Below are positions 1,264-62,936 of a DNA stretch of 64,000 bases, one piece after another. The stretch is from NCBI GenBank assembly GCA_934096945.1, contig CAKOND010000005.1, positions 18,088 to 82,087 on the forward strand. Reading direction: 5' to 3'. The translations under genes and the position numbers were made by a program. The stretch's first letter is position 1. Each line of letters begins with the position of its first letter. Source of the DNA: an uncultured Bacilli bacterium (lineage in GTDB: Bacteria; Bacillota_I; Bacilli_A; RF39; UBA660). The notes beneath the pieces were generated by a model. The model did not search any database and was not told the DNA's origin. It was given only the letters and a program-made list of their open reading frames with translations.

Positions 1264-4192
1264 AATTTTCGAGCTTTGCACTAACTATTTTACTAACACC
1301 AGACTCTTGCATTGTAATACCATATAATGAATCCGCATATTCCATCATTCTCTTTTTGTGAGTTATAACTATAAACTGACTTCTAGTCTTTTCTTCACTT
1401 AAATACTTACCAAACATATCAACATTTACTTCATCAAGTGCTGCTTCTGCTTCATCTAAAATGACAAATGGTGATGGCTTAACTTCAAGCATTGCAAATA
1501 GTAAACATATCGCTGTCAAAGCTTTTTCTCCCCCACTTAAGGCAACCGGTGAGTTTATTTTCTTTCCTGGTGGAATAGCTATAATATCAATACCTGTATT
1601 AAGTAGGTCATCTGGGTCACTCAAAGCAAGTTCCCCTCGTCCACCTTTAAACATCATCTTAAATATTTTACTAAATTCTTGTTTGATACTTTCAAATGAT
1701 TTAGCAAACTTTTCAACCATTATATCATCCATTTCCTTAATAATACCTTTAAGCTCCATAGATGCACTTTCCAAATCAAATTTTTGACTGGTTAAAAATT
1801 CATATCTTTTAGAAATTCTTTCATATTCTTCGATTGAACCCAAGTTTACATTACCAAGTTTATTTAATTCTCTTTTTAAATTAGATACATGGTCACGTGC
1901 TATATCAGCATCCATCTCTAAAGTATAACTTGATGATGCAGCTTCATAAGTTAAATTATAATTATTATTTAAATCCCCAAGTAAATTATCAAGTTTAACT
2001 TCTAATTTTCCTGATGAAACTTCCTTACTCTTTAGTTCATTATTTACTATATTATAACTACTACTACTATCTCTAAGTTTTTTATCTAAAATATTAATTT
2101 CATCATTTAAATCATTCTTTTCTTTAGTAATTAACTTAATATCTTTTTCAATTAATTCACGTGTTTTACTTAGATTATTTATTTTTTCCATTAATTTCAT
2201 CAAATGATCATAAAGGTTATTCGACTTCATATCATTTATACCTTCAAGTTCACTTAATACATTCTTATGTTCTTCATTAAGTCTACTTAAATTTGTCTTT
2301 TTATTAAATAATTCATCATTTAATAATATTACATATTTATTTAAGACGTTTTCTCTTTCTTCAAGTTCTTCCATATTATTGGTAATGTCATTAACTTCAT
2401 CAGTTAAATCTTTAATCTTAATATCCATTTTTTGAAGTTCACTCTTAAGTTTATTAAGTTCATTCTTTTCATTTAACATTGTATTTTTCTTACTTGTACC
2501 CCCGGTAATAGAACCACCTACATGAAGTATTTCCCCATCAAGTGATACAACCTTATATTTATAATTAATAAGTTTACCTATAATATTTAAAGTTCTTTCA
2601 TTATCAACTACTACTACTTGGCCAAGTTGGTTTTCTACTATATTTCGGTATTTTGGATCAAAATCTATTAAATCACTTAATATACCAATATAACCATTAA
2701 TATTTTTAATATCATCAATTACTTCATTATTTACATATTTTCCTTTTATAACATTAAGTGGGAAAAATGTAGCTCTACCAAGTTTTCTTTCTTTTAAGAA
2801 ATCTATGGCATTTAATGCAGCATTTTCATCATCAACTACTAAAAAGTTACTGCTTGCACCTAATGCTATATCAGTTGCTACTAAATATTTTTCAGGAATA
2901 TCTATAAGTTTACCAATTGTATTATGAATACCATGAAGTCTTGGATTATTTAAAATATTTCGCACAGATACCGGAGCAGATTCAGCACTTAAAATATTAT
3001 TTTCTAAAATTTGAATTTTATTTTCAAGTAAGAATTTAGCTTTACTTGTATCCATTAAAGTATTACTTGCTGTACTTTTCTTAACCTTTAAAACAAGCAA
3101 ATTATTTTTTACATCTTCTCCCTTGCTTCTTTCTGAATTTATACTATTTTCAATATCTAAAACTTCTCTTTCACAAAGAGTAATATTTTTATTTAATTCA
3201 AGTTCTTTTTCTTTAAGTTTAATTAAATTATTTTCAAGTACATCATTATTTGCTTCATATTTTTGTCTTTCAATAGTAAGTTTCTTTTCACCATTTAAAT
3301 CACTTAAATTTTCTGTTACTTTTAAAAGTTCTTCTTTCTTTTTATTTAATTTTTCTTCAAGTTCTAAACTTCTAAACTTAAGAGCTTCTAATTTACTATC
3401 TTCAGTGTTATCTTTTAAAGTAAGCAATTTTTCTTTTAAGTTCTTAATTTCTTCAGAAATTTTAGTATATTCAAGATTTAAATCTGTTATATCCTTAGCT
3501 ATTAAAGCGATATCTATACTTTCAAGTTCATCTTTTATATTTAAGTATTTTTGTGCCACAACACTTTGTTCTTTTAATGGTTCAACAGTTGTTGATAGCT
3601 CATCAATAACCAGTTTAATACGCATTAAATTTTCTTCAGTTTTTTCAAGTTTTTTAAGTGATTCTTCTTTACGTTTTTTGTATTTTAAAACACCTGCGGC
3701 ACTTTCAAAAATAACTCTTCGATCACTTGATTTTGAATTAACAATATCTGTTACATTTCCTTGACTTATGATATTAAAAGCATTTGTTCCAGCACCAGAA
3801 TCTATAAATAAATCTGTTACATCTTTAAGTCTAACTCTAGCATTATTTATAAAATATTCATTTTCACCAGTTGAATAAACAATTCTTTTTATTTCTACTT
3901 CTTTAAAATCACTATGTAAATAATGATCACTATTATCAAAAACTAAAGCAACCATAGCTCTTTTTTGAGCTTCTCTTGACTCACTTCCACTAAAAATACA
4001 ATCAGTCATATTATTTTGACCACGCAAAGATTTTACAGATTGCTCACCTAAAACCCATCTAACAGCATCAACAATATTACTTTTGCCACTTCCATTTGGT
4101 CCAACAATCCCAGTTATTCCTGGATTTATTTCTAAATCTAATTTATCTGCAAAAGACTTAAAGCCTTGTGCTCTAATACTTTTTAAATACAT
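1262..4192 (-). CDS. smc: chromosome segregation protein SMC
   Basis: 976 aa. Walker [10 protein letters not shown], long coiled coils, signature [11 protein letters not shown], Walker [11 protein letters not shown]. Confidence 0.95.
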
Positions 4193-4843
4193 CTATTTCA
4201 CCGCACTTTTTTTCAAAGCATCTAAAGCTGCATTTTGCTCTGCTTCTTTTTTGCTTTTGCCAATTCCCTTTCCATATACAATATTATCAATTTTTACTGC
4301 CATTTCAAATGTCTTATCATGAGCTTCACCATATTCATTTAATAAAACATATTCAAGTGAGCGTCTTGTTGTTTGTACGGCTTCTTGAAGTATTGTTTTA
4401 TAATCTGTATTAAAATCTCTTTTTTCTTTTATATAAGGAATAATTATATCATCTAAATACTTTTTAACAACATCATAACCTTGATCAAGATAAATAACTG
4501 CTGCAACTGCTTCAAAAACATCAGCTATAATTGTATCATTTAAATTATGAATTTGCCCATGTCCAAGCCTAATACATTTATCAATACCAATATCACGAGA
4601 ATAACACGCTAAAGCTTTTTCACAAACATAATTTGCTCTAATTTTAGTCATTTCTCCTTCTTTATAATCCGTATTTAAATAAAGATATTCACTAGTTACA
4701 GCTTCAAGTATAGCATCTCCTAAATATTCAAGTCTTTCATAATTTTCACAATTATGTTCATTTGAATAACTACTATGCGTAAGGGCTGTCTTTAAAAGTT
4801 CTTCATTATTAATTTTAATGCCCATGTTTTCTAAAAATTTCAT
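4193..4843 (-). CDS. rnc: ribonuclease III
   Basis: [12 protein letters not shown] signature and a C-terminal dsRBD ([16 protein letters not shown]). It lies immediately upstream of smc. Confidence 0.95.
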
Positions 4844-4934
4844 AATATCATATCCATTTCTATACCATTATAACAAATTTTTTCTAATTTGAAAACATTT
4901 ACAAACGAATAATTTTATAGTACAATTTATAAAG

Positions 4935-5168
4935 GTGATGTATTTGAAAAAATTAATCATTTATTTGATACGTGGATATCAAGTTACACCTCTTCATAGC
5001 CATAGTATGTGCCGCTTTACTCCGACTTGTAGTGAGTATATGATTGAAGCACTAGAAGCTTATGGTTTACGAAAAGGCCTACTTCTTGGCATAAAAAGAA
5101 TATTTAAATGTAATCCATTTGGTAAATTTGGTTATGATGAACTTAAAAAGGAAGGAAAAAATTTATGA
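4935..5168 (+). CDS. yidD: membrane protein insertion efficiency factor YidD
   Basis: Contains YQ..PL....[12 protein letters not shown]....G...G..L...R...CNPF. The start is uncertain (GTG 4935, ATG 4938 or TTG 4944). Confidence 0.85.
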
Positions 5169-6427: not shown

Positions 6428-6527
6428 AAAAAAATGAGCTTTCCCCCGACTAAAGGAACCCACAAGGCAAGCTTGCTGGTATGTAATTTACATATCCTTT
6501 AGTAACTCGGCGAACTACTAACTCACC
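6428..6527 (-). ncRNA. candidate structured small RNA (~100 nt), unknown family
   Basis: A minus-strand promoter TTGACA-17-TATTAT (6534-6562) lies upstream. In the RNA, CUAAAGGA pairs with UCCUUUAG, UUCGCCGA with UCGGGGGA, and UGAG-UU with AAGCUCA. The RNA ends in a U7 tract. Confidence 0.3.
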
Positions 6528-9242: not shown

Positions 9243-10265
9243 CTAAACTATTTTTTTAATATATCTACATTTTGGGTAATTATTGCATCCCATGAAAGGG
9301 CCATATTTTCCACTTCTTTTAACCAATGTTCCTCCACATCTTGGACAAACATCATTAGTTTCAAAATCTTCTTTAGTTTTATCATTTTTTCCACTATTAC
9401 ATCTATCACATAAAGTTTGTAAATTACTCATGATAGTCTTTCCACCTTTGGATACTGGAATAATATGATCAACCTCAAGTTTTGCACCATCCTTCGATGT
9501 TATTCCACATTTTTGACAAGTAAAATTATCTCTTTTTAAAACATTGTATCTGATATCATCATTCATAATTTTTCTTTCTTGCCTTTTAGTTACTTCATAC
9601 TTATTACCATTTTCCCATTCTTTATAAAGTTCTAATAATTCGTAATAATTTCTAAATCCGGTTCTTCTCTCATGAACATTACCGCCATTACTTTTATAAT
9701 ATGCGTCTAAATAAATTTTTATTAAAAAATCTTTTTTAGTATAAATTACCTTTTTCAGCACATTTTTTTCTATTCTTTTGTATGTTTTATCAGAATATTT
9801 AGTATTATTTACTGACTCTTGCTCTAAAATTTTCGCTACATTCTTCTCATACTCATCAAGCAAAGAAATATTGTATATTGAATTTTCAATATCTGTTCTA
9901 AGTCCTTTAATATTATTTTCAATATGATATTTAATGATATCATTACCATTAACTCTATCTAAACTTTTTCTAGAATACTCTCTTTGTATAATATCACGTT
10001 TTTTACATCTTATTTTTTTAAAATTTTTATTAAGTTCTTCAATTTGTTTTATTTTTTCACTATTATCTTTAATATTTTTTTCTCTTTTTTGGGATATTGT
10101 GTTTACTGTTATTAAAGAAATAGATATAGAAAGAATTAACGCAAGCATATTCAAATTTTCATGCATTTTATTATCAGTATTAAAATTTGATAATAAAGAA
10201 AATAATATTAAACACAATAAAAAACTAATCCCCGTTACTAATATAACTTTTTCCCATCTATTCAT
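9243..10265 (-). CDS. membrane-anchored HNH endonuclease with C-terminal topoisomerase-type C4 zinc ribbon
   Basis: Two N-terminal hydrophobic helices. HNH motif DHIIPVSKGGKT..SNLQTLCDRCNSGK. C-terminal CPRCGGTLVKRSGKYGPFMGCNNYPKC. Confidence 0.8.
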   Translation of the reverse strand: MNRWEKVILVTGISFLLCLILFSLLSNFNTDNKMHENLNMLALILSISISLITVNTISQKREKNIKDNSEKIKQIEELNKNFKKIRCKKRDIIQREYSRKSLDRVNGNDIIKYHIENNIKGLRTDIENSIYNISLLDEYEKNVAKILEQESVNNTKYSDKTYKRIEKNVLKKVIYTKKDFLIKIYLDAYYKSNGGNVHERRTGFRNYYELLELYKEWENGNKYEVTKRQERKIMNDDIRYNVLKRDNFTCQKCGITSKDGAKLEVDHIIPVSKGGKTIMSNLQTLCDRCNSGKNDKTKEDFETNDVCPRCGGTLVKRSGKYGPFMGCNNYPKCRYIKKIV

Positions 10266-10328
10266 AAATTACACTTCCTCACAATAATTTTAACAAATAT
10301 TTTAAAAAAAGTAAAACCAAATTTAGCT

Positions 10329-11114
10329 TTACTTATTTGTATTGATTATTATACTTCCAATACCACCATCTATCTTGATGTCATTTACACCTTCACCCAC
10401 TGTTGCATCCTTTGAATAGTCTTCTCCATTAATAGTTATGCTACCAAAACCTTTGCTTGCTTTAATAGTATAATCATTACCATTTAAATCAAGTATTAAT
10501 TCTCCAATACCTTGTTCTATTTTATTATTACCATGTAAACTACCACTAAAATAAAATTTTCCAGCTCCCATGTCTAAATCCAAATCTTCTAGTACTGAAC
10601 TCATAATATTAAGCTCACCTGCTCCACCATCAATATCTGTTTTACCAGAAATTAAATTATTGATAATTACTTTACCTGCTCCTTGATCTAAGTTAAATCT
10701 ACTTGTGTTTATATCACTAATTTCGAGCTTTCCAGCATCAACATCAATACTTAAATCTTTTAAATTATTTGGAATAGTAATTATTACTTTACTAATGCTT
10801 TTGTTTCTAAAAACATTTACACTTTTTTCTTTAATTGTTAAAGTATTACTTTCTTCATTTACTTTAAATCTTTTACTTACATTATCTGCAGTTACATTTA
10901 ATGCATCACCTTTTTTAATAACTAAATTGGATGTCCCCATATCAATTTTAATATTCTTTATTTCACTAGAATAGTTTTCATTCATATTTATGTCATTATT
11001 AACTGAAAATATACTTGATGCAAAGTAAACAACAATATTAATTACGCTTACAATTATAAATATTGCTAAACATATCGCAAAAGCTTTAATTAGTTTTTGA
11101 GTTGTTTCATTCAT
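10329..11114 (-). CDS. DUF4097-like beta-strand repeat protein (membrane anchored)
   Basis: N-terminal TM helix. Repeated D.GAG.l.i units (DAGKLEISD, QGAGKVIINN, GGAGELNIMS, MGAGKFYFSG). Confidence 0.6.
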   Translation of the reverse strand: MNETTQKLIKAFAICLAIFIIVSVINIVVYFASSIFSVNNDINMNENYSSEIKNIKIDMGTSNLVIKKGDALNVTADNVSKRFKVNEESNTLTIKEKSVNVFRNKSISKVIITIPNNLKDLSIDVDAGKLEISDINTSRFNLDQGAGKVIINNLISGKTDIDGGAGELNIMSSVLEDLDLDMGAGKFYFSGSLHGNNKIEQGIGELILDLNGNDYTIKASKGFGSITINGEDYSKDATVGEGVNDIKIDGGIGSIIINTNK

Positions 11115-11800
11115 TTTATTTCAATGCCTCCGAATAAGGCGAAACCATCTACATAAATTGTTTTCTTCGCATTCTTATTTGCTTTTTCATCCATACTTTC
11201 ACTTGTTACTCCGCCGAATATTGGTGTAGATTTAATCTTTACTTCTACATCTTTTGGAACGAGAATTGTTATACCTGCAAAGATAGCACTTGCTTTAATA
11301 TATGTTTCATTTTTTAAATCAGCATCTCTTAAGTCTAATTTAATAGAACCAAAAACAGCATCTAAATTAGCTTTTTCAAATTTTTCTTCAGATTTATTAA
11401 TATTTTGTTCTCCGAATGTCGCAGTTATTACTTCAACATTTGAAAAATCAGCATTATCTATTTTTTCTTTAACATCTGCTTTAATCTTATTTCCAAATAT
11501 TAAAGAAAGACCTATGATAACCACTATAGCTGGTAACAAAATTTCCCATAGAATGTCAAAATCAAATACATCTAAACTACCTAAAAGAAGAAAAATACCA
11601 ATTACTAAACATATCGCAGATGATACTTTTCCATTATTTTTAGGGTTAACTAAAGATATAGCACTTGGCACAATAATAAATAAAGTCCACCAACCATCAA
11701 AGAATATGTTAATGTCTGTTACTCCGGTTCTGTTTAAACCCCAGATAACACCAATAACTATCAAAACAACTCCCCATAAAATACGACTTAAATTTTTCAT
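11111..11800 (-). CDS. LiaF-like cell-wall-active-antibiotic response protein
   Basis: Multi-TM N-terminus and a LiaF/DUF2154-like C-terminus (VFGSIKLDLRDADL...GITILVPKDVEV...FGGIEIK). Overlaps the downstream gene by 4 nt. Confidence 0.6.
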   Translation of the reverse strand: MKNLSRILWGVVLIVIGVIWGLNRTGVTDINIFFDGWWTLFIIVPSAISLVNPKNNGKVSSAICLVIGIFLLLGSLDVFDFDILWEILLPAIVVIIGLSLIFGNKIKADVKEKIDNADFSNVEVITATFGEQNINKSEEKFEKANLDAVFGSIKLDLRDADLKNETYIKASAIFAGITILVPKDVEVKIKSTPIFGGVTSESMDEKANKNAKKTIYVDGFALFGGIEIK

Positions 11801-25519: not shown

Positions 25520-25807
25520 CTACTTTTTTTGTTTGCTTATTTCATAAGCTTTTTCTATTTCAGCTTTTGATAATCCAGTGTAATTACTTATTTTGGCAAT
25601 ACTTTCATTTTCACGTATCATTTTCTTTGCAACAGCCATTTTTCCCTCATTTATTCCTTCATTTATACCAAGTGCCTTGCCTTTTTTCATGCCACGAGCT
25701 TCACTTTTTTCTTTTATTAAATATTCTCTAGCATTTTGCATCATTATATTTTCCTTTTCTGGTGTTAGATTCCAAAATGATTTAATTGAATTTTCATTTA
25801 ATAACAT
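25520..25807 (-). pseudogene. 3' fragment of a second Rpn-type nuclease gene (tandem partial copy)
   Basis: It encodes MLLNENSIKSFWNLTPEKENIMMQNAREYLIKEKSEARG..., identical to residues ~223-260 of the upstream full-length gene, then a divergent tail. It has no N-terminal nuclease domain. Confidence 0.6.
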
Positions 25808-25828
25808 AAGTTTATTTGCACACTCCTT
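25657..25828. repeat. 172-bp near-identical direct repeat, copy 1 (period 284 bp)
   Basis: By hand alignment it matches 25941-26112 with only a few mismatches. Confidence 0.85.
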
Positions 25829-25833
25829 ATTTT

Positions 25834-26757
25834 TTATTTCATAAGCTTTTCTATTTCAGCTCTTGATAATCCGGTTGCACTTTTAATAATATCTGCACAA
25901 ATATTCATTTTAACTAAATTCTTTGCAACATCTATCTTTCCTTCATTTATGCCAAGTGCCTTGCCTTTTTTTATGCCACGAGCTTCACTTTTTTCTTTTA
26001 TTAAATATTCTCTAGCATTTTGCATCATTATATTTTCCTTTTCTGGTGTTAGATTCCAAAATGATTTAATTGAATTTTCATTTAATAACATAAGTTTATT
26101 TGCACACTCCTTCACTTCTGGGTCATCTACACTATCTGCATATATAATTATGTCATCTTTATTTCTTAATGAAATTAGTGTTAATAGCGACCCTTTCATA
26201 TTTTCTTTAGCAACATTATCATACCATACTTTTTTATAATTATCAAGATTTACATGCATAAATCTCAAATTAAGTAATATCTTTTTATACTCTTCTGGCA
26301 TATTTTCACTATCTATTATTAATCCTCTTTCTAATCCCATATTATAGTTTAAAGAGATATGAACAAATTTTGTTATTGTATCAAATCTTTCACCAACTTT
26401 TGTAAACTGTGAATAAAAACTAAAGAAAAAGCAATTATTTCTTACTATTGTTTCTTCACCCCATGATGTATTAAGTTCCATATGAATCATTTGCCCATTT
26501 GATTCTACGAGTAAATCTAATCTTTTAGTCCTTTCCTCAGTATTTTGTACTGCTAGTTCTGGTGACATTATTTTTATTACTTTAGTCTTTTCTTTAGTTA
26601 CTTCACTTATGAGTCTTTCTAAAAGATGATAATCCTCATTTTTAACTACTTCTTCACTACAAAAAATAGCTTTAAATACCCTATCATAGTAAAAGGCATA
26701 AAATTCTTGTTCTTCATTTTTATATTTCACTTTTTTAATTGTTGCAACGTTTTGCAT
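25834..26757 (-). CDS. Rpn family recombination-promoting nuclease / PD-(D/E)XK putative transposase
   Basis: YDRVFKAIF..., RLDLLVESNGQMIHMELN (D...D/E.K-like core) and a C-terminal helical tail typical of YhgA/Rpn-like proteins. Confidence 0.7.
   Translation of the reverse strand: MQNVATIKKVKYKNEEQEFYAFYYDRVFKAIFCSEEVVKNEDYHLLERLISEVTKEKTKVIKIMSPELAVQNTEERTKRLDLLVESNGQMIHMELNTSWGEETIVRNNCFFFSFYSQFTKVGERFDTITKFVHISLNYNMGLERGLIIDSENMPEEYKKILLNLRFMHVNLDNYKKVWYDNVAKENMKGSLLTLISLRNKDDIIIYADSVDDPEVKECANKLMLLNENSIKSFWNLTPEKENIMMQNAREYLIKEKSEARGIKKGKALGINEGKIDVAKNLVKMNICADIIKSATGLSRAEIEKLMK
25941..26112. repeat. 172-bp near-identical direct repeat, copy 2
   Basis: See copy 1. Confidence 0.85.
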
Positions 26758-29782: not shown

Positions 29783-30697
29783 TTAGCTAAGTTCAAGTGT
29801 TTCCGTAATATTTCCATCAATTATAATATTAATACCTTTTTCTTCAAGTGAAAAATATAAGTCTTTATAATCTGGAAGAGTTACAAATTTAACTATTGAT
29901 CCCTTAGCATCTTTATATATAAATAGTTGCTTATCATTTATAATAAATAAATAATTTCCTACCCCATAGACATTAGTTTTAGGAATAGCACTTAAGTATT
30001 CAATACCATTATAATCAAATATATGGTAAGTATTATTATCATAAGTTATGTAATAATTATCATTAAAATCAACTATTTCATTAGCTATGGCATTAATTAA
30101 AGGTGTACCATCATCTTTTAAAATAAACCATAAGTTATTTTGCTTAACTATAAATTTAGATGTATCAAGCTTTTGACCTATAAAATGAGATGGGATAGCT
30201 ATATAATCATAAGTACTTTGGATGGCGGTTTTACCTATTTCAAAAAAGGTTATTCCCCATCCACTTTTTTTATGGTTTATAATAAAATTACTAACAGCAT
30301 CAACGTTATAATTCTTTATTTCTTCATATTCATCAACTATGCTCTTACCCACAATATTATATAAGATGTAGCTATTATCCTTTTTAAAGATACTAAAGAA
30401 TTCATTTATGGGGGCATCTAAAATTTTATTTCCATTTTTGTATGAATTAGTATGATATTGGTTATCATCTATTACAGTATCTGCTATAGCACAATTGTTA
30501 CATTCATAAGTACTAATAAGTTTTTCACCCACAAAGAAATATACTTTGTTATTTAAAATAAATTCTTTATTTGGATTATTTAGGGATTCATCAATTTTCT
30601 TAGGGCCTTTGAAATGTTCTATAGTTCCTAAAATGCCAAGAGGAAGCATTATTATAAGTAAAATTATAATTGTTATTAATGTATTTTTATCCTTCAT
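29783..30697 (-). CDS. hypothetical membrane-anchored protein
   Basis: N-terminal TM helix and an extracytoplasmic Y/N/I-rich domain. Overlaps the upstream gene by 11 nt. Confidence 0.55.
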   Translation of the reverse strand: MKDKNTLITIIILLIIMLPLGILGTIEHFKGPKKIDESLNNPNKEFILNNKVYFFVGEKLISTYECNNCAIADTVIDDNQYHTNSYKNGNKILDAPINEFFSIFKKDNSYILYNIVGKSIVDEYEEIKNYNVDAVSNFIINHKKSGWGITFFEIGKTAIQSTYDYIAIPSHFIGQKLDTSKFIVKQNNLWFILKDDGTPLINAIANEIVDFNDNYYITYDNNTYHIFDYNGIEYLSAIPKTNVYGVGNYLFIINDKQLFIYKDAKGSIVKFVTLPDYKDLYFSLEEKGINIIIDGNITETLELS

Positions 30698-32777
30698 TTA
30701 AAATACCTACATTTACTTCTGCAGTTTTAGTGCTTCCGTCTTCGACATATGTTAAATAAACTATATCACCTTTAATTTTATAACTTAAGTTTTTGCTTAC
30801 ATCGCCTTCATCAAGTTTTATTTCAAGTTCAGCTGCAATATCTGTTTTATTATTGTAATTATATACTCCGACCATATTATCTTTATTAATTGTTATATAA
30901 AACTTATTTTCCATAATTATATTTTCAAATTCATTACTTACTATTTTACCAGTTTTATCATATATTAGATATTTATCATTATTTTTAACCTTTACATATC
31001 CATCCATGTATTTAACAATTTCATATTTTGTTGTTATATTTTTGGTAAGTTCTGTTCCTTTGTCATCGTATAAGTGATATGTTTCATTGTCTTCTTTAAA
31101 TAAATAATAATTATCAAGCATTTTAAAGGCAACATTTGTGGATACTACATTTCCATTTTCATCTTTTTTTCTAAATGGTACTAAAATATTTACATCACTA
31201 CTTATAATATTTATTATGCCATACAAATCATTTGTATTTTTGGCTAAAACATGGGTTCCTGCAGTATCAACAAAACTAATATTTTCAGTAATGTCATGGA
31301 AAGCAGCATCAACAGATTTATAAGTTGCTAGTTTCTTCTTAGATTTTAGATCCCAAAGAATTATATTGTCATTTGTATTCGGAGCTTTAGTATCACTTAT
31401 AAATACATATCTTTTGTTAAATATAGGTAAGTAACCATTATCTACTTTTTCTCCACTTCTTAAAATATTACTTTCTTTAGCTATAAAACAGTTTCCTAAA
31501 GCCTCATCACCTTCAGATATAGAATTTGCATAACTACATACGTAACTACCTAAAAGATCTGTTTTTTCACTATCACTATATATATATAGTTTACCTTCAA
31601 AATAATTAATATACTCTAGTTTTTTATTAAACTTACCTTCATTTAAATTAATTCTTGCTGAATCTTCACCATATTCTATGCGCATTGAATCGTTAGTAAT
31701 TGTGGCAGTAAATGCTTCTTCTTTACCTATTTGCCTTAAATTATCATTAAATATTAATTTGGTATTGTAACTATTACTATTTATTCTAATTCCATCCATA
31801 TTCATTGGACTACCTTCTTTATCATAAACATAAAGTTTTTTACCATCAGCCACTATTGCATAATTACTTACAAATCTTACATAATCATAAGAACTATCCA
31901 CTATTACTTTTCCATCATAACCATATACATAGTAATTGCTTCCAACCTTGACACTTAGCATATTACTATCAAAGGCTTTGATCGCACCGGGAACACTTTT
32001 AGATTGTTCCTTTCCATCAAAATCTATTAAAGAATAATTACTATTTTTAGAGACTACTAATTTATCAGTATCTTCAATATATCCCATGTAATCGTATGAA
32101 TTTTTGATTCTTTCTTTTACTTCTTTATCTGTTATTTCAATTAAACCATATTTATTATCTTTTTTAAATATTATATTATTATCTTTTACTTCTTTAACTA
32201 GGTTATAGGTATCTAATACTTTTTCTTTGTTTATATCATAAAGTATTACATCACCATTTTCTTTTTTCATGTTATCATATATAAAGACATAATTATCAAG
32301 TATTATATCAGTTCTATTATTTATAGGTAAACCATTTTCATATACTCTTTTAAATGAATCAAAATCATCTTCATTACTAAAATTTGCTACATAACATAAA
32401 TTTTCGCTTTTATTTTCACAAGTGTAACCACCTAGTTCTTTCTTGTCTTTATCTATAAATATTAGTTTACCATCTACATATTTATAATTGTCTTTTTCTA
32501 AGACTACAACTGGGTCTTTTGGCTTATCTTGATTATTATCTTTATTAAATACTAAAAAGTATAATAAAACACCTGCGATAATTAATATTACTAGTACTAT
32601 ACTAATTATTATAATTATTTTCTTCTTATCCATTTTACTTGGCTTTTTTTCTTTTTTGCCTTTAGGCACACTTACTTGCTCCATATCATATTGAGTATTA
32701 CTTATTTCTTCATTTTCATCAATCTCAATTATTTCATTAGCATTATTATTAATTTCTTCTAAAATTTCTTCTTCCAT
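30687..32777 (-). CDS. hypothetical membrane-anchored protein with WG/KWG-like repeats
   Basis: Acidic N-terminus, one TM helix, and repeated ..KYGLIE../..LYGIIN../..VGVYNY.. beta-repeat-like units. Confidence 0.55.
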   Translation of the reverse strand: MEEEILEEINNNANEIIEIDENEEISNTQYDMEQVSVPKGKKEKKPSKMDKKKIIIIISIVLVILIIAGVLLYFLVFNKDNNQDKPKDPVVVLEKDNYKYVDGKLIFIDKDKKELGGYTCENKSENLCYVANFSNEDDFDSFKRVYENGLPINNRTDIILDNYVFIYDNMKKENGDVILYDINKEKVLDTYNLVKEVKDNNIIFKKDNKYGLIEITDKEVKERIKNSYDYMGYIEDTDKLVVSKNSNYSLIDFDGKEQSKSVPGAIKAFDSNMLSVKVGSNYYVYGYDGKVIVDSSYDYVRFVSNYAIVADGKKLYVYDKEGSPMNMDGIRINSNSYNTKLIFNDNLRQIGKEEAFTATITNDSMRIEYGEDSARINLNEGKFNKKLEYINYFEGKLYIYSDSEKTDLLGSYVCSYANSISEGDEALGNCFIAKESNILRSGEKVDNGYLPIFNKRYVFISDTKAPNTNDNIILWDLKSKKKLATYKSVDAAFHDITENISFVDTAGTHVLAKNTNDLYGIINIISSDVNILVPFRKKDENGNVVSTNVAFKMLDNYYLFKEDNETYHLYDDKGTELTKNITTKYEIVKYMDGYVKVKNNDKYLIYDKTGKIVSNEFENIIMENKFYITINKDNMVGVYNYNNKTDIAAELEIKLDEGDVSKNLSYKIKGDIVYLTYVEDGSTKTAEVNVGILNEG

Positions 32778-32830: not shown

Positions 32831-34618
32831 CTAATTTATTATGATTGGGTCTTCAGCTGTACCTTGGCCTGATTTATATGCCGTTGAAGATGAGAGACTG
32901 AAGGACGGGCGCACTCCATAGATGCCGTCCACACCGTCGTAGTTCACGAAACCATCGTAGTACACACCGAACGCATGGTACGAACCGCCCGCAGCACGGG
33001 AAATAGTCCATTCCAAGACTCCTCCATATAACCAATTTTCTCCCTTCGAAAATCTATAATCCTTTGTTGCATCAGTATTATTAAATCCAACCAATGTCCA
33101 CGCTCTTGGTCCTGCCGCATAATAATAATCACTTACATACATCAATCCTATTTTTGCTCTATATTCTGCTTTTCCATCTGTTGTATTTGTTGTTACTGCA
33201 TTTGTTATTTCATTTTGATATGCTACTGATGGTGTTTTTGAAGCTATATTTTCAAATGTATTTCCTCCAACTTTCCAGGTTGTTGTTGCTATTTTTTTTG
33301 CCCATTCTGTTCCAATGTTATTTAAAAAATTTGTATTTAAATTTACTTTATTTAAATTACTTTCACTCCATGTATTTTTTGCTGCAATATTCCAGAAATA
33401 TAATGAATTACTTGCTGGACTTTCTCCTTGTTCTCCACTAAAGTAAGATGAATATTCTTGTGAAAAAACTCCATCTGTTCCTAGTAAACTTGATTTTGCG
33501 TAATCCCATTTGATTAGTTTTACATTATTTCCAAATACTCCAATTATTCTATATAAATTTTCTGTTGGACATGGACTTGATGTCGAGCCAAAACATACAA
33601 AGTTATTTACATTATCTTTTGTCAAATATCCTTTTTCTACTGCTTTATTTAATGTTTCTTTATATGTTTGATACTGTGTTGTATCTCCCTTTATTAAATA
33701 ATAATGTGCTTGTGATGCATCGCATTCATAACCTACATATTGTTTCGTTCCATTACAATAAAAATCTATTAATGCTGTTGTTACTGTATTATTATATCCT
33801 ATCATCATTGTTGCTCCGGTTGCTTTTCCTGTTTCCGTTAAGACATAATCTCCGCCTGCATATCTGTAACTATTGTCACCTGCTCCGTTTGTGAGACTAC
33901 TATCATGATAATAGATATTATTAGCTCCTTGAGTTCCTGTATATAGTGATTTTACATGATCAGCTAATAAGTTTATCTTTTCCTTTTGTATCATCACTTT
34001 TGCACTCATACTTTTTCCTGCATTACCATTTTGATTAGCATCATAGTTTACAAATGTTAATTTTATATTCCACTTTTCTTCTTTACTTGGACTTGCTGTT
34101 ATTTCTCTATTATTAAATAGTGTTATAAGTCCATTCTTATTTGTTATATCATATCCTGATACTAATGCTCCACTTCCATCTGTTACTGATGTATGTGTTA
34201 ATCCTGATATATCTGTTACTTCTGTTCCTGCACTATTTGTAACTGTTAATATTAATTCTGGTGTACTTTCATTTATTGAATATGTAAATGAATTATTAGA
34301 AATATTTAAATATACATAATAATGTTCCGTCGCAGTATTTGTCTTATTATTTGCTGTAAGAGTTGCTTTTGCAAAAGTGCTTCCAACTGCATTACCTTTG
34401 CCACTTGCAAATGAACTTTGATCAGCATAGATACCTATATCATCACCTGTTGTAAAAGTAAATACATCTGTTGTATATGTTGTTACATTTAAGTTTGCTG
34501 ATGTTGGTTCTCCACCTTGGGCAGTAAAATATGCATATGTTGCTCCGATTAATAACAACATAAATGTTGTTATTGCTATTACACTTAATATTATTGGTTT
34601 ATTTTTATTATTTTCCAT
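32831..34618 (-). CDS. secreted/surface protein, paralog A; C-terminal lectin-like module with hypervariable cassette (putative DGR target)
   Basis: 595 aa. The N-terminal hydrophobic segment + GATYAYFTAQ resembles SipW-type (TasA/camelysin-class) signal peptides. The N-terminal ~215 aa and the C-terminal module are homologous to ORF 60697..62100. The C-terminus reads EWTISR...GVRPSFSL. Confidence 0.75.
   Translation of the reverse strand: MENNKNKPIILSVIAITTFMLLLIGATYAYFTAQGGEPTSANLNVTTYTTDVFTFTTGDDIGIYADQSSFASGKGNAVGSTFAKATLTANNKTNTATEHYYVYLNISNNSFTYSINESTPELILTVTNSAGTEVTDISGLTHTSVTDGSGALVSGYDITNKNGLITLFNNREITASPSKEEKWNIKLTFVNYDANQNGNAGKSMSAKVMIQKEKINLLADHVKSLYTGTQGANNIYYHDSSLTNGAGDNSYRYAGGDYVLTETGKATGATMMIGYNNTVTTALIDFYCNGTKQYVGYECDASQAHYYLIKGDTTQYQTYKETLNKAVEKGYLTKDNVNNFVCFGSTSSPCPTENLYRIIGVFGNNVKLIKWDYAKSSLLGTDGVFSQEYSSYFSGEQGESPASNSLYFWNIAAKNTWSESNLNKVNLNTNFLNNIGTEWAKKIATTTWKVGGNTFENIASKTPSVAYQNEITNAVTTNTTDGKAEYRAKIGLMYVSDYYYAAGPRAWTLVGFNNTDATKDYRFSKGENWLYGGVLEWTISRAAGGSYHAFGVYYDGFVNYDGVDGIYGVRPSFSLSSSTAYKSGQGTAEDPIIIN
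32900..33010 (-). repeat. putative DGR variable region VR-A (GC-rich, adenine-depleted cassette)
   Basis: See findings. It aligns gap-free with 60766-60876, and differences are almost exclusively at codon positions 1-2. Confidence 0.65.
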
Positions 34619-38084: not shown

Positions 38085-38123
38085 TAGCGTATAATAACTC
38101 ATACACAAAGGGGTGTTTTGGTC

Positions 38124-38780
38124 ATGTATTTTATTGGGTGTACTAAAGATAGTTTTACGCCAGAAATCGTTTTGGGTTCTGGGTGTGAAGGAAAAGTTTA
38201 TTATAATCAAAAAACTCAAGAAGCAGTTAAGATACATTATGATAATATAGGTAAAGAATCATTAAGTGAAGAGGATGCTTTAAAGTTATGTGATATTTCT
38301 ACTTCAAATATTTTACTTCCTAGAAGACTTATTTATGATGAAAATGGTGTTTTTTTAGGTTATACAACTAATTTTGTACCAAAATATAAACATGTTGAAG
38401 AACTAGATGTAGAGCATTATACTGTAGATTATTTAATTAATATTTTATCTAAGCTATACAAAGATGCACAATTAATGAGTGAAAAGGGCTTAGTTTTAAG
38501 TGATCTACTATCAGATGGAAATTATATATTTAATGGTAGTTATTATTTAACTGATCCAGGATTTTATCATTTTGTTGAAAAAGATATGAAGACAATTTTA
38601 ATAGAAAATATAAGAAAATTAAATGCGTTTTTGGATGCTACAGTTTTTTGGTGTAGGATAAACAATTTGCAGGAAGAACTTTTAAGAAGAAATGCTACTT
38701 ATACTATTTGTGATTATTTAAAAGATGAAGGCCAAAAAGATGAGACTTTAAATAGTTTGGTTAGAAGAAAGGTTTTATAA
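38124..38780 (+). CDS. minimal protein-kinase-fold protein, paralog 1
   Basis: G-loop-like GSGCEGKVYY, Lys motif EAVKIH, catalytic-loop-like LSDLLSDGNYIF, DFG-like LTDPGFY. ATG at 38124 after a GGGGTG SD (the track start at 38118 is TTG). Confidence 0.55.
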   Translation: MYFIGCTKDSFTPEIVLGSGCEGKVYYNQKTQEAVKIHYDNIGKESLSEEDALKLCDISTSNILLPRRLIYDENGVFLGYTTNFVPKYKHVEELDVEHYTVDYLINILSKLYKDAQLMSEKGLVLSDLLSDGNYIFNGSYYLTDPGFYHFVEKDMKTILIENIRKLNAFLDATVFWCRINNLQEELLRRNATYTICDYLKDEGQKDETLNSLVRRKVL

Positions 38781-39439
38781 TGACATATTATGTTGGCTTA
38801 GAAAAGGAAGAATTTATACCTAATATTTATATTGGGGCTGGAAGTGAAGGAATAGTTTATTATAATCCAAAAACTCAGGAAGCAATCAAGATATTTTATC
38901 TTTTTAATGGATATGATGCAAACATGGATGAAATGGAAGCTTTAAAAATGAGTAAGATAGAAACAAAATATATTTTACTTCCAAGAAGGTTAGTATATGA
39001 TGAACGTGGCATTTTTATGGGGTACACTACTCCTTTTATAAGAAAATCTTGGAATATGAAAGAAGAAGCTTTACTTAATTATCCTAGTGTATTATTAAGA
39101 TATTTGTTGGCAAAACTATATAAAGACACTGAAATAATAAGTAAGCACAAATTAATTATTAATGATATATTAAATAAACCGGACAATTATATTTTTAATG
39201 GATCATTTTATTTAGTTGATCCGGGATATTATTACTTTTGTGGTAATTCTGAAGAAATTGTTAAAATAACAAATTTTAAAAGAATAAATAATTTTCTTTG
39301 CGAAACTGTTTTAAATTCTATAATTCCTGATTTATCCAAAGAATTAAGTGAAAGAGGTTTAACTTATACTTTATGTGATTACTTAAAAGATGAAGTAAGA
39401 CCTAATGAAACATTGATGAATTTAGTAAGAAGAAAGTAA
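38780..39439 (+). CDS. minimal protein-kinase-fold protein, paralog 2
   Basis: GAGSEGIVYY, EAIKIF, INDILNKPDNYIF (cf. D-L-K-P-x-N), LVDPGYY. TAATG stop/start overlap with paralog 1. Confidence 0.55.
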   Translation: MTYYVGLEKEEFIPNIYIGAGSEGIVYYNPKTQEAIKIFYLFNGYDANMDEMEALKMSKIETKYILLPRRLVYDERGIFMGYTTPFIRKSWNMKEEALLNYPSVLLRYLLAKLYKDTEIISKHKLIINDILNKPDNYIFNGSFYLVDPGYYYFCGNSEEIVKITNFKRINNFLCETVLNSIIPDLSKELSERGLTYTLCDYLKDEVRPNETLMNLVRRK

Positions 39440-58116: not shown

Positions 58117-60438
58117 TCAATTGGTTTTGCTATCTTCAAGTATTACTTCATCATCTTTTGTTTTAAAACATATATCTTTAAATTTACAATAAGTACATGC
58201 TATATTTTTACCACCAAGTACCTTGGGATTAATATTAAAATTACCTTCCACAATATTCTTTATAACATCATCTATAATCTCATTTACTTTAATTATTAAA
58301 TTATCCATCTCTTCATTAGATAACACTTTACTAGTACTATAAAAAGAACCATCTTTCTTAAATCTTAAACCTTTTATCATTTTACTATCTTTATAGTTAC
58401 TATCAAGAAGACTCATTATAGTTTCATTACTATTGGTATAGCCAGATAGTCTTAAGTTTTCTTTCTTTAAAGTTTCTAAAGACTTAACTTTATCTCTATT
58501 TAAAACATTATTAAGTACTCTTTCTATATAAAAACCTGCAATAATAGAGTCTTTAAATCTATCACTTGTTTTAAGTAAATATAAATATATTGGAAGTTGC
58601 ATATTAAGACCATATTCTAAAGTATCAAGTTTTATATTCTTATCCCCAGTTTTATAATCTACTACTGCTATTACTTCTTTATCATTATATTTAGTGGTCA
58701 TAACTTTATCTATAAAACCTTTAAAGTTCACCTTTACTCCATTATACTTTTTTTCCACATTAAGTTCTGTTTCAAATAAATAATCATTTAAACTACTTGT
58801 CTTTCTTTGTTCTTTTAAATATTTAAGTAAAAAGTCTATTTCTTTAGCAAGAATATGAATATAAAATAGTTCTCTTTCTTTAAATTCAAAATCTAATTCT
58901 TTAATAAATAAACTTATCTCTTTTTCAATATCTATTTCTTTATTTATACCAATCTCTAATATATGATGCACAATCTGTCCAATTATAGTTTTAAATGTTT
59001 CTTCAAAAACATCAAGATTTAATACTTTAGATAAATAATATCTAAAACTACATTCATTAAAATTTTCAAGACTTGTATATGAAAGTGTTACTCCTTCTTC
59101 AAGTCTTTCTTTAAGTAAAGTATTATCTACACTAGTAAATTTATTATTATATTCTCTATATGGAATATTTAGATTATTTTGATATATTTTTAAATACTTA
59201 CTTTCATCATTATATTTATATAAATTATCTAAATCCATAGCATACTCAAGTTCACTATATTTTTTGCTGAAAGACACTTTTTTATCTATATCTATTTTCT
59301 TTACCTCAAGTCCTAAATCTTCAATTAAGCTTGATGGATATAAAGCTCCATTATCGCCATGCATAGAATAACTTATACTTAAACTTGGAATATTATATAT
59401 TAAATTTATAACATTATCTTTATTTATCTTATTTATTTCTAAAGATGTATCAAGTCCTAATTTATTCTTTATATTATCACTTAAAAAGTCATCATCTTTT
59501 TCTACTTTAGGATAACTACCTATATTAAAGCCAAGTAAAAACACATAGTCACTTTCACTATAAACCTCTTCAAGAGAATGTAACTCTATAGCATTTTTAT
59601 ATATAGTATTACTAACTTTAGCTTGTTTTAAATCCCTTTTAATAAACTCTTTTCTTATATTTTTATTCTTTACTTGTACAGACTTATTTATAATAGTAAT
59701 AAGTTCATTTACATTACTATACTTACCACTTAAATATTCTATTACTTCATCTATTTCTTTATTATCATAAAATTTCAAAAATTCTTTAGAAATACTTAAA
59801 CTTAAAAAAGATGTACTACTTTCTATATTAATTGGTACTTTAAATAATTTAAAATAGTATTCTAAATGTTTATAATATTCTTTACTTGCAATTAGTTTGA
59901 TATTATTAATATTTATCCCTTTTTTAAGTAATTTCTTTATTTCAATAATTACATGCTCTACTTCTTCACATATATCTTTTGCTTCATATACACATGGCTT
60001 ATAACTATTTTTTTCTAATTTTTCTAATTTATAGTTAATACCATCTAAAATTAATTTTTCTTCTTTAGTTAATACATCTTTACCATAGATGGTAACTTTT
60101 TGATTAAGCATATATTTTCTAAATTTATCATCATATATAAGTAAATTTTGTTCATCTAATTCTTTTCTTAATTCATTTAAAAACTTTACTTTTTCATCAT
60201 CAATATCTTTTAAAAAGTATAAATTATCTAAATAAATCTTAGCTATATTAATATTTACATTATATTTATTTATAATATATTCTAAAGCTCTATCATCATA
60301 ATCAAAGAATAACTTTTTTTTAAGTTCTTTAAACCCTAAAAATTTATTATTATTAAATTTCTTTTCCATATTTATTTTCTTCAATAATTCTATTTTATTA
60401 AATTCATTAGTTATTACTACATTCATAATATACCTCAT
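58117..60438 (-). CDS. addB: AddB/RexB-like nuclease subunit (short, 773 aa)
   Basis: C-terminal PD-(D/E)XK + Fe-S pattern: CSFRYYL ... VDYKTGDK ... CTYCKFKDIC. It has no Walker A and is shorter than Bacillus AddB. The start could be the ATG at 60426. Confidence 0.8.
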   Translation of the reverse strand: MRYIMNVVITNEFNKIELLKKINMEKKFNNNKFLGFKELKKKLFFDYDDRALEYIINKYNVNINIAKIYLDNLYFLKDIDDEKVKFLNELRKELDEQNLLIYDDKFRKYMLNQKVTIYGKDVLTKEEKLILDGINYKLEKLEKNSYKPCVYEAKDICEEVEHVIIEIKKLLKKGININNIKLIASKEYYKHLEYYFKLFKVPINIESSTSFLSLSISKEFLKFYDNKEIDEVIEYLSGKYSNVNELITIINKSVQVKNKNIRKEFIKRDLKQAKVSNTIYKNAIELHSLEEVYSESDYVFLLGFNIGSYPKVEKDDDFLSDNIKNKLGLDTSLEINKINKDNVINLIYNIPSLSISYSMHGDNGALYPSSLIEDLGLEVKKIDIDKKVSFSKKYSELEYAMDLDNLYKYNDESKYLKIYQNNLNIPYREYNNKFTSVDNTLLKERLEEGVTLSYTSLENFNECSFRYYLSKVLNLDVFEETFKTIIGQIVHHILEIGINKEIDIEKEISLFIKELDFEFKERELFYIHILAKEIDFLLKYLKEQRKTSSLNDYLFETELNVEKKYNGVKVNFKGFIDKVMTTKYNDKEVIAVVDYKTGDKNIKLDTLEYGLNMQLPIYLYLLKTSDRFKDSIIAGFYIERVLNNVLNRDKVKSLETLKKENLRLSGYTNSNETIMSLLDSNYKDSKMIKGLRFKKDGSFYSTSKVLSNEEMDNLIIKVNEIIDDVIKNIVEGNFNINPKVLGGKNIACTYCKFKDICFKTKDDEVILEDSKTN

Positions 60439-60466
60439 TAATTAATACATTAATATTATATCATTA
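60421..60466. repeat. 46-bp direct repeat DR1 (addB start codon + leader)
   Basis: ATTCATAATATACCTCATTAATTAATACATTAATATTATATCATTA matches 62891-62936 at 44/46 positions. Weaker homology continues to ~60528 / ~62970. Confidence 0.9.
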
Positions 60467-60544: not shown

Positions 60545-60696
60545 AAGTATGTTGATAACTCGGCGCCGCTGCCTCACCTCGCACAAACCGCGAGACTCGG
60601 CAGTTGGGTCTTCCACCACGCCAATCTCTTCACTTCGCATTATTTTGCACCCGGCCTGACCTAGCACGCGGACGCGCTAGACAGGCATGTCCGATC
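60545..60696 (-). other. GC-rich (~60% by hand count) structured non-coding element 3' of paralog B, unknown function
   Basis: Hairpins CTAGC(A)CG-cgga-CG(C)GCTAG (60661-60680) and CTGCC-tcac-CTCGC-acaaacc-GCGAG-actc-GGCAG (60569-60603). There is no long ORF and no similarity to the VR. Confidence 0.5.
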
Positions 60697-62100
60697 CTAG
60701 TTTACCACAATCGGATCAGCGGCTGTGCCGCTTCCCGATGCATAGTTCACGGAAGATGAAAGATTGAAGGACGGCCGCACCGCAGTGCTGCTGTACACAA
60801 AGTTGTTGTACACGTAACCACCGAAGTACACAAAGAACGCACTGATCGAAATGTCCGCACTACGGGAAATAGTCCATTCTGTAGCACCTATATACATCCA
60901 ATTTGCACTTTTGATGTCTGTTCCATCATAATCATAAAAATTTGTTATCCATGCACTTGGGGCTGCTGCAAATCCATAATCACTTGCATACATTAAGCCT
61001 ATTTTTTTATTTACACTTGGTGATGAATTAATTTCATTTTGATATACTGCTTTGGCTGGTTGGCTAATGCTAATATTATTAAATCCTCCAACCTTCCATG
61101 TTGTTTCTGCTATATTACCTTTTGTTGTTTCATCAAATGCATTTAAAAAATCATTATTTAAATATGTATTTAGACTTGATGTTGACCATGTATTATTACC
61201 ATTACCATCCCAGGCTTTTCCTCCTACAGATGTTGATTTGATTAATTTTACTTGGTTTCCAAATACTCCTATTATTCTGTACAAATTATCTGTTGGACAT
61301 GGTGTTGTACTTCCAAAACATACAAAGTTATTTACACTTTCACTTGCTCCGGCATATCTATAACTATTGTCACCTGCTCCATTTGTTAGTGTACTAGTAT
61401 GATGATAAATATTATTTGCCCCTTGAGTTCCTGTAAATTTACTTATAACATAACCTGCTAATAATTGTTTTTTTTGTATCATCACTTTTGCACTCATGCT
61501 CTTACCAGCATTAGCACTTTGACTTGCATCATAGTTTACAAATGTTACTTTAATATTCCATTTTTCTTCTTTACTTGGGTTTGCAGTTATTTCTCTATTA
61601 TTAAAGAGTGTTATAAGTCCTGATTTATTTGTTATATCATAACCTGATACTTGAGTTCCATTTGCTCCAGTTACGATAACATGATTAAGTGTACTTATAT
61701 TGGTTACTTCATTACCACTACTATCTGTTACTGTCATTATTATTTCTGGTGTATTTTCATTTATTGAATATGTAAATGTATTACTTTCTATATTCAAATA
61801 CAAGTAATAATGTTCTGTTGCTGTATTTGTTTTATTATTTGCTGTGAGCATTGCACTTGCATATGTACTTCCTGTTTGATTTCCTTTTCCACTTGCAAAA
61901 TTATCTTGATTTATACTAAATGATATTGCACTACCACTTGAGAATGTAAATGTATCCACAGTATTTGCATTAACTTTGATGTCCGCTACTGCTGGATCCC
62001 CTACTTGAGCTTGAAAATATGCATATGTTGCAGTTACTACTGTGAGCGCTAATGCTACTATTGCTACTATACTTATTATTTTTGCCTTTTTATTTTCCAT
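60697..62100 (-). CDS. secreted/surface protein, paralog B; C-terminal lectin-like module with hypervariable cassette (putative DGR target)
   Basis: 467 aa. The signal segment + TATYAYFQAQ and residues ~70-215 are near-identical to paralog A. It lacks A's ~130-aa central insert. The C-terminus reads EWTISR...AVRPSFNL. Confidence 0.75.
   Translation of the reverse strand: MENKKAKIISIVAIVALALTVVTATYAYFQAQVGDPAVADIKVNANTVDTFTFSSGSAISFSINQDNFASGKGNQTGSTYASAMLTANNKTNTATEHYYLYLNIESNTFTYSINENTPEIIMTVTDSSGNEVTNISTLNHVIVTGANGTQVSGYDITNKSGLITLFNNREITANPSKEEKWNIKVTFVNYDASQSANAGKSMSAKVMIQKKQLLAGYVISKFTGTQGANNIYHHTSTLTNGAGDNSYRYAGASESVNNFVCFGSTTPCPTDNLYRIIGVFGNQVKLIKSTSVGGKAWDGNGNNTWSTSSLNTYLNNDFLNAFDETTKGNIAETTWKVGGFNNISISQPAKAVYQNEINSSPSVNKKIGLMYASDYGFAAAPSAWITNFYDYDGTDIKSANWMYIGATEWTISRSADISISAFFVYFGGYVYNNFVYSSTAVRPSFNLSSSVNYASGSGTAADPIVVN
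60766..60876 (-). repeat. putative DGR variable region VR-B
   Basis: Gap-free codon alignment with 32900-33010; see findings. Confidence 0.65.
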
Positions 62101-62259: not shown

Positions 62260-62892
62260 TTATAAATTTTCAATTAAAAATACCAACACCTGCAAATAAA
62301 CTTTAAAAGTATTTTCATCTACAAATCCAAGTAATGTTTTTTCTGATAATTTAACAAAGAAAATTCTTTTGATTTTGCATTAGGTTCAATCACAGAATAT
62401 TGAAATTTTTTTGATGCATTTTGAAGTTGCAAAGATAATGAATTATATATTTTTCTAATTTTTAAAGTTTCTAAAGAATTGTTAACATGATTGTTCATAC
62501 CATTTAAAAAAAGTTAAGTCATGCAATAATTCAGAAACACTATCAGGCATACCACCAGAAAGTAAATATTCTTTATAATATGATAAAGCTTTATCATGTA
62601 TAAGCCCCATAGCTTTATTTTTATCAAAACATTCTTTAATTCTATCAAGTAATGCATCTTGATTAAAAGTCATTAAGAATTCTTCAAAATCTATGGGATA
62701 CATATCAATTCTAGAAACTTTACCTACTGGAAAAGGTCTATTTAATCTTGATAATTTAACCCCGAGTAAAGAACCAGCACATATAATTCTTACATTACTA
62801 TGTTTTTCATTGAAAAATTTCAGTTCTGAAATTAATTCTTCATATTTAAAATTATTTTTTATAATATTTAAATTCATTTTTACAAAATTCAT
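62260..62892 (-). pseudogene. decayed AAA-ATPase/DUF4143-family gene (no P-loop N-terminus; frameshifted C-terminal part)
   Basis: ORF 62482..62892 holds the middle region (..ICAGSLLGVKL...FPVGKVSRIDMYPIDFEEFL...GGMP). Downstream, other frames still read ..SKKFQYSVIEPNAKSKEFS.. and ..FKVYLQVLVF.. . Confidence 0.55.
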
Positions 62893-62936
62893 TCATAATA
62901 TACCTCATTAATTAATACATAAATATTATGTCATTA
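62891..62936. repeat. 46-bp direct repeat DR2 (second copy of addB start/leader)
   Basis: See DR1. It includes a second ATGAGGTATATTATGAAT that opens only a short ORF. Confidence 0.9.

Follow-up and report, generated by a model that had tools for sequence, protein, structure and literature searches.

Variable regions of DGR origin in surface-protein genes of an uncultured Bacilli bacterium, probably orphaned from their core

Examination of two paralogous surface-protein genes of an uncultured Bacilli bacterium, here called genes A and B, reveals that their 3' ends carry short GC-rich cassettes that are almost certainly variable regions (VRs) produced by a diversity-generating retroelement (DGR), a well-known system of targeted mutation. 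On balance we favour the explanation that these VRs arose by adenine-mutagenic retrohoming of a cellular DGR of the MSL/Avd type, that the core of this DGR has gone from the window (the whole 64-kb stretch of DNA that was analysed), and that the VRs are now static. Mismatches between the VRs and template repeats (TRs) of related organisms fall nearly all at TR adenines, the window contains no core, and the VR of gene A is the same in every one of at least five assemblies.

Cassettes of genes A and B and their template repeats

Alignment of the two cassettes, read as the reverse complements of positions 32900-32998 (gene A) and 60766-60864 (gene B), runs without gaps over 33 codons. An earlier note, made from the sequence alone, held that 27 of these 99 nucleotides differ, with 25 of the differences at codon positions 1 and 2 and only two at position 3, and our recount gave the same picture (12, 13 and 2 differences at positions 1, 2 and 3, respectively). 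The rest of the gene A/gene B alignment shows 110, 105 and 157 differences at the same three positions, and its contrast with the cassette is supported by a Fisher p of 1.6e-4. The recount also agrees with the note in that 14 codons are identical between the cassettes and that these contain, in total, a single adenine; the invariant codons assume rare G/C-rich synonymous forms, which are the same as those in the TRs. The cassettes had further been described as GC-rich, and this holds at 52-60% GC in a 27% GC window: cassette A has 59.6% GC and cassette B 52.5%, the remainder of each gene about 31%, and the window as a whole 27.3%. Comparison with TRs places the homologous stretch of 100 nt slightly apart from the bounds used for the cassettes in the note (Table 1). 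In gene A, which overall has 30.6% GC and a tail of 39% GC, the strongly GC-rich tract (59.6%) coincides with these 100 nt; in gene B the GC-rich tract runs on through the gene tail and approximately 145 nt beyond the stop codon.

Table 1. Features of genes A and B, their variable regions and the surroundings of gene B (window coordinates)
Feature	Coordinates	Strand	Basis and remarks
Gene A, 595 aa	32831..34618	-	ORF list, translation; N-terminal hydrophobic signal/anchor, beta-sandwich region, C-terminal DUF6273-like domain ending in VR
VR A, 100 nt homologous to DGR TR	32905..33004	-	TR comparison, GC 59.6%
Conserved block just 3' of VR A (CCTTCAGTCTCTCATCTTC)	32886..32904	-	Alignments; IMH-like position
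Gene B, 467 aa, gene A paralog with C-terminal DUF6273	60697..62100	-	Pfam, translation
VR B	60771..60870	-	TR variant 2 comparison
Conserved block just 3' of VR B, IMH-like position	60752..60770	-	Alignments
GC-rich hairpin, 4-nt loop, 10 nt past gene B stop, no T-run	60654..60686	-	Fold (z = -3.8), alignments
Second conserved stem-loop (CTGCCG...CGGCAG)	60569..60603	-	Fold prediction, conservation
Whole DGR target-side 3' module, 146 nt, 60% GC	60551..60696	-	Alignment to intact cassettes
addB promoter/RBS/ATG segment, duplicated copy	60398..60466	.	Repeat family D12, 86% identity; other copy 62868-62936
Truncated AAA_14 ATPase ORF just upstream of gene B	62482..62892	-	Pfam matches profile positions 73-129 of 129 only

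A DUF6273-like scaffold had been proposed for the cassettes. Pfam confirms this for gene B, which scores 33.5 bits against a cut-off of 23.5; gene A, at 17.7 bits, lies below that cut-off. DUF6273 has been reported as a DGR-target domain that is C-type-lectin-like in models and whose C-terminal end is formed by the VR (PMC10743442, PMC11792537). NCBIfam, signal-peptide class models included, gave no match for gene A or gene B. AlphaFold2 models of gene B, built for the full length (59 sequences) and for the C-terminal 212 aa (133 sequences), have pLDDT <50 in the VR domain and are confident only at residues 50-210, a beta-sandwich; a Foldseek search of the PDB returned generic beta-sandwich matches, at TM <0.2, and a profile search of PDB sequences returned no match. 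Orthologs of gene A have hypervariable VRs, and approximately 5 kb past the window end there is a third VR-bearing paralog, gene C (L001, positions 3508-5079). Immediately 3' of the VR, genes A and B and the targets of intact cassettes in relatives have in common a conserved block (CCTTCAGTCTCTCATCTTC). TR homology ends at ...CCGT, and VR and TR diverge beyond this point; judged by its position, the block in both genes would be the IMH. On its 3' side gene A has only the VR and this short block, with no hairpin, and the next gene begins 53 nt past its stop codon.

To look for relatives we scanned species-representative genomes with a degenerate VR pattern, which has T where the TR has A (GGTTNC) and hence finds VRs only; four related gut MAGs were recovered. 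In one of these, Firmicutes bacterium CAG:460 (L009), the target gene homolog is followed by a GC-rich hairpin, a spacer of approximately 170 nt and a 100-nt TR, and downstream of the TR by a structured spacer, an ORF with a MutS_I domain, an Avd-like ORF and an RT of the RVT_1 family with an ...IGNMTSQ... motif and a YMDD box. The VR of L009 differs from its own TR at 23 sites, every one of them a TR adenine (23/23). An RT (...LPIGNMTSQF...), an Avd-like ORF and a MutS_I ORF adjoin homologous targets in L009, L039 and L057, and the intact layout reads target gene, hairpin, stem-loop, TR promoter region, TR, structured spacer, MutS-like gene, Avd-like gene and RT. The MutS-like accessory gene corresponds to the 'MSL' class of Wu et al. 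2018, whose MSL-containing cellular DGRs (Architecture D) include that of Legionella pneumophila (PMC5758913).

A scan of gut metagenomes with the first 36 nt of the TR (CGTAATGCGGACAATTCGAACAATGCGTTCAATGTG) revealed 46 TR loci with several TR variants. When VR A and VR B are set against natural TRs, all of which come from contigs of other organisms and not from the window's genome, VR B departs from TR variant 2 (nine metagenome loci) by 18 mismatches, 18/18 at TR adenines and 0/65 at non-A sites (hypergeometric p = 1.5e-10), and VR A departs from its best TRs by 22 mismatches at adenines and 2-3 elsewhere (22/24 at A; p = 4e-11). Across seven VRs, 34 of the 35 TR-A columns are variable versus 11 of the 65 non-A columns (p = 5e-16), and among 127 distinct VRs of homologous proteins the entropy is approximately 3 bits at AAY-templated residues and less than 1 bit at A-free codons. 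The TRs of relatives carry AAC/AAT codons at the variable positions, just as had been deduced from the variable codons of the two cassettes. The presence of TRs in relatives, the confinement of mismatches to adenines and the DUF6273 domain therefore support the view, first put forward in the note, that the cassette is a DGR VR.

The intact cassettes are themselves informative on activity: 18 metagenome loci with one common TR carry 17 distinct VRs, which mostly have A-site mismatches only, and their flanks fall into 6-7 types. By this pattern of variation, the intact cassettes of related low-GC gut Bacilli/'Tenericutes' are clearly active in nature. Scans of viral contigs returned no match to the VR frame or to the TR 36-mer, and given that the TR is unmatched there, the DGR family appears to be cellular.

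The 3' module of gene B and its surroundings

The 3' end of gene B has the post-VR block, and the region immediately downstream of the gene contains the hairpin and second stem-loop of a target-side 3' module, all homologous to their counterparts in intact cassettes. The hairpin corresponds to the one between target and TR in those cassettes, and both stems of the module are identical to those of the intact cassette L042. Examination of 13 cassette variants showed that both stems are conserved and that the second stem keeps 4 base pairs despite changes on both sides; the G-U pairs conserved in the stems suggest a structure at the RNA level. Between strains the module is 99% conserved. Rfam returned no family in the region downstream of gene B. 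A role of the hairpin solely as an intrinsic terminator was rejected because no T-run follows it, and the idea that the GC-rich tract stems from a group II intron was rejected because Rfam and tblastn gave neither an intron RT nor intron domains.

The gene tail together with the module is 92-93% identical to the intact cassettes L042, L050 and L041 up to GAGTTATCAAC and is unrelated to them beyond it: past this point intact cassettes have approximately 70 nt more and then the TR, and the window has AT-rich DNA and the addB promoter. The same junction is found in L010, a strain with flanks 96-98% identical to those of the window strain. The end-point of the module (...GTTATCAAC), which in intact cassettes lies approximately 70 nt upstream of the TR and before the presumed TR promoter, also falls at the same nucleotide in L067, in another lineage, beside an unrelated 698-aa gene at a gene-A-type locus. 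Given that the end-point recurs at this unrelated locus, it may mark a boundary that is natural to the module and not the scar of a deletion; the shared end-point may also derive from a truncated copy of common ancestry that later spread between paralogs. We consider it improbable that the module, from post-VR block through hairpin and stem-loop to the end at GTTATCAAC, is a discrete and portable unit. Were it one, the DGR core (promoter, TR, MSL, avd and RT) may insert and excise with precision, in the manner of a mobile cassette; alternatively, 3' ends that carry a VR may be copied between paralogs via cDNA of the target transcript, with the copy stopping at the transcript 3' end. Under both readings a DGR that acts in trans in this genome could still make use of the module.

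The two copies of the addB promoter/RBS/ATG segment bracket a 2.47-kb block that comprises the AAA_14 fragment, gene B and the 3' module, an arrangement that suggests an old insertion which has since decayed. Elsewhere in the clade the DGR element decays and recombines. In L067-type genes the 3' module has weakened stems, and the VR next to it shows no variation across 39 protein clusters and drift at non-A sites; in L007 the TR is fused to a different target's 3' end, and the RT is absent.

Absence of the core and the state of the variable regions

A third copy of the cassette, the TR, had been anticipated in the earlier note, and a search of the 64-kb window found none; tblastn of the same window with four DGR RTs likewise gave nothing (best E = 0.7). 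Gene B is followed by addB and addA, with no reverse transcriptase. Neither TR nor RT occurs in approximately 100-160 kb of same-species loci, and strains of approximately 96% identity, which were reached via a neighbouring 169-aa protein, have no RT in the 10 kb that precede the window start. The window and the same-species loci contain no cognate TR and no DGR-clade RT, and 0 of the 46 metagenomic TR loci adjoin same-species DNA.

The core might instead reside at a distance, such that genes A, B and C would be diversified in trans by a DGR still live at another site in the genome, with the module of gene B as its stand-alone docking site and not a remnant. We regard this as possible, if doubtful. 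Remote targets have been documented for non-phage DGRs (PMC5758913), the family is seemingly cellular in that the TR 36-mer is unmatched in viral contigs, and the relatives L006, L008 and L068 also possess remote-type VRs with no adjacent RT. The condition of the elements points the same way: VR B is free of non-A mismatches, the 3' module is structurally intact with both stems as in L042, and neither the VRs nor the GC-rich module have decayed toward AT, all of which would fit continued function and speaks against orphaned, static elements.

Comparison of strains argues against ongoing diversification from a remote core. VR A does not differ among at least five assemblies (L003, L004, L005, P0121 and P0362), which represent three protein alleles, and this invariance differs from the 17 VRs in 18 loci of the intact cassettes (Fisher p = 0.01). 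The identity extends to the nucleotide level in L003 and L004, which are 99.3% identical over 18 kb; in P0121 and P0362 the VR A protein sequence is identical, with 8 amino acid differences elsewhere in the former, all within residues 300-396, and 11 in the latter, all within residues 62-162. Two strains with different gene A sequences likewise have one and the same VR B. Gene B of the window strain and that of L010 differ over a tract of approximately 1.1 kb that includes non-VR codons and synonymous sites and ends abruptly at the stop codon, and the C-terminal part of gene C has been replaced between strains in a similar way; these differences stem from whole-segment replacement by recombination and not from adenine mutagenesis in place. 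A VR varying at TR-A sites between close strains with constant flanks, the mark of an active target, was not seen in the strains compared. The lack of a TR and RT in the same-species sequence examined, the failure of any metagenomic TR locus to adjoin same-species DNA, and the L067-type genes, which keep the module beside an invariant and drifted VR, also count against action in trans. Given that the core is absent from the window and from approximately 100 kb of same-species sequence, and that VR A is invariant, the cassette is therefore a DGR product without a sign of present diversification: a genuine VR that is probably inactive.

In light of these observations, we propose that the following events, patterned on the established DGR mechanism, gave rise to the orphaned VRs. 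A TR RNA with AAY codons at ligand-contact positions would have been reverse-transcribed with adenine-specific misincorporation, and the resulting GC-rich cDNA would have replaced the 3' end of the DUF6273-type domain of the surface proteins. The core (TR, accessory genes and RT) would subsequently have been lost rather than relocated, leaving gene A with the VR only and gene B with only the target-side 3' module, whose end corresponds to the start of the TR promoter region of intact cassettes. The remaining elements would now be inactive.

It is also conceivable, though rather unlikely overall, that the C-terminal modules (VR, tail and 3' module) came ready-diversified from DGR-bearing relatives, through homologous recombination, and that the cassettes were never made in this lineage. 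For gene B such an import is plausible: its tail and module share the above-described 92-93% identity with L042 and the rest of the target gene only approximately 70-78%, genes B and C in strains of 96-98% identity differ by long-segment replacement with sharp borders, and the L007 TR has recombined with the 3' end of another target. For this gene, however, import overlaps with loss of the core following retrohoming, and it fits gene A less well because the strongly GC-rich tract there coincides with the TR-homologous 100 nt, as local cDNA replacement yields, and is not that of a foreign gene end. Finally, an origin without any DGR, by ordinary diversifying selection or gene conversion between paralogs, is effectively refuted: positive selection could in principle produce the excess at codon positions 1 and 2, but the variable sites coincide with TR adenines (p = 5e-16), natural TRs account for every gene B difference, and the rare G/C-rich synonymous forms of the invariant codons match the TR.

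Implications and comparison with known DGRs

DGRs, remote targets, MSL accessories and DUF6273 targets have all been described previously, and what is modestly interesting here is the twist of apparently orphaned targets that keep their cis elements. The present case shows that a DGR VR can be recognised by a sequence-only reader from codon-position and adenine statistics alone, and it documents a cellular DGR family whose targets are DUF6273 surface proteins of uncultured gut Bacilli with very AT-rich genomes. Within the family, active cassettes with all parts in place would coexist in nature with orphaned targets that have a VR and a 3' recognition module and no core. Surveys that need an adjacent RT miss such orphans, a limitation noted in PMC8144416, and orphaned targets could lead to inflated or confused estimates of DGR activity. 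If there is indeed a remote core, the genome, which is apparently small and AT-rich, would harbour a multi-target chromosomal DGR. Under either outcome the current understanding of the DGR mechanism is unchanged.

Among the closest known systems are cellular DGRs that contain MSL: the intact relatives likewise have a TR, a small MutS-like gene, an avd-like gene, an RT and a GC-rich hairpin 3' of the VR, and the target is likewise a surface protein and not a phage tail protein. The window differs from these in being without core genes, in a target domain (DUF6273) borne on a protein with an N-terminal signal/anchor, and in that the hosts are very AT-rich gut Bacilli/'Tenericutes' MAGs. The DGR of Treponema denticola, with its TvpA family of multiple remote targets, offers a parallel for dispersed paralogous targets (here genes A, B and C) with VRs from one TR type. 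In that organism, however, TR and RT are in the same genome and the VRs match the TR, whereas the sequence examined here has no TR or RT and its VRs look fixed. DUF6273 is also the target domain of DGRs in gut phages, such as Faecalibacterium prophages (PMC11792537) and those with 'tentaclins' (PMC10743442), but the proteins concerned are phage receptor-binding proteins with the DGR adjacent; here the targets form a chromosomal gene family, and the TR is unmatched in the viral-contig collection. With the DGR of Bordetella phage BPP-1 (Mtd, IMH, cruciform) the present family has in common the adenine-specific flow from TR to VR, a VR that lies at the very C-terminus and, directly 3' of it, a conserved block and a GC hairpin whose loop is 4 nt long. 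Unlike BPP-1, it combines MSL and Avd as its accessory set and has a second conserved stem-loop, with G-U pairs that suggest structure at the RNA level.

Members of the surface-protein family

Beyond genes A and B, the family includes a third paralog, gene C, situated past the window end (see table). Comparison of its variable region (VR) with the template repeat (TR) of the diversity-generating retroelement (DGR) reveals 20 mismatches that fall on TR adenines, plus 4-6 elsewhere. In L010, a strain with 96-98% identical flanks, a different, shorter version replaces the C-terminal part of gene C. An additional DUF6273 paralog is present in strains that share about 96% identity with the window (locus L063, 1-1324), and at its place in the window (about 9850-11170) other ORFs are found instead; thus, the number of family members differs among strains.

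Genomic contexts of genes A and B

In gene A and its orthologs the gene order is consistent, with gene A being followed by a gene of ~696 aa, one of ~304 aa and valS. This arrangement suggests that the surface-protein family is encoded in a conserved operon. Neither the ~696-aa nor the ~304-aa gene has a Pfam match above the cut-offs. In another lineage (L067), where the gene-A-type locus is occupied by a P0003-type gene, the hairpin/stem-loop module lies immediately upstream of a 698-aa gene and has the same end-point, GTTATCAAC, as the window module. Its stems contain mismatches, and the VR of the P0003-type gene shows no variation across 39 clusters.

The promoter, ribosome-binding site and first codons of addB are directly duplicated, and the 2.47-kb block between the two copies contains a truncated AAA_14 ORF, gene B and the DGR 3' module. 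This duplication resembles a scar left by an old insertion at the addB 5' end.

Coordinates of the features discussed in this section
Feature	Location	Strand	Remarks
Gene C, third paralog with its own DGR-type VR, 523 aa	L001 3508-5079		~5 kb past window position 64000
Two uncharacterised genes, about 696 aa and 304 aa	window 29783-32777; L067 7620-10633	- (window)	3' of gene A; orthologs
Hairpin/stem-loop module downstream of P0003-type gene (gene-A-type locus)	L067 7437-7585		same module as 3' of gene B
addB promoter, RBS and first codons, direct duplication	window 60398-60466 and 62868-62936		86% identity
DUF3800-VII RNA (RF02967)	window 6428-6527	-	Rfam, full-length match
175-nt direct repeat	window 25654-25828 and 25938-26112		99% identity; spacing 284 nt
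Adjacent ORFs, 220 and 219 aa	window 38118-39439	+	~66% nt identity
Recombined TR	L007 2760-2912	-	Hadza MAG

Other features of the window

The DUF3800-VII RNA scores 61.2 bits against an Rfam gathering score of 36.2, and is flanked by tRNA genes on either side. The 175-nt direct repeat overlaps the ORFs at 25520-25807 and 25834-26757. Given their nucleotide identity, the adjacent 220-aa and 219-aa ORFs are tandem paralogs; for the proteins that other strains encode here, no Pfam match is on record.

A recombined template repeat

At locus L007 the second half of the TR has given way to a 3' end derived from a different target gene, and both the accessory genes and the reverse transcriptase are absent downstream of it. 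L007 is a dead, recombined DGR.
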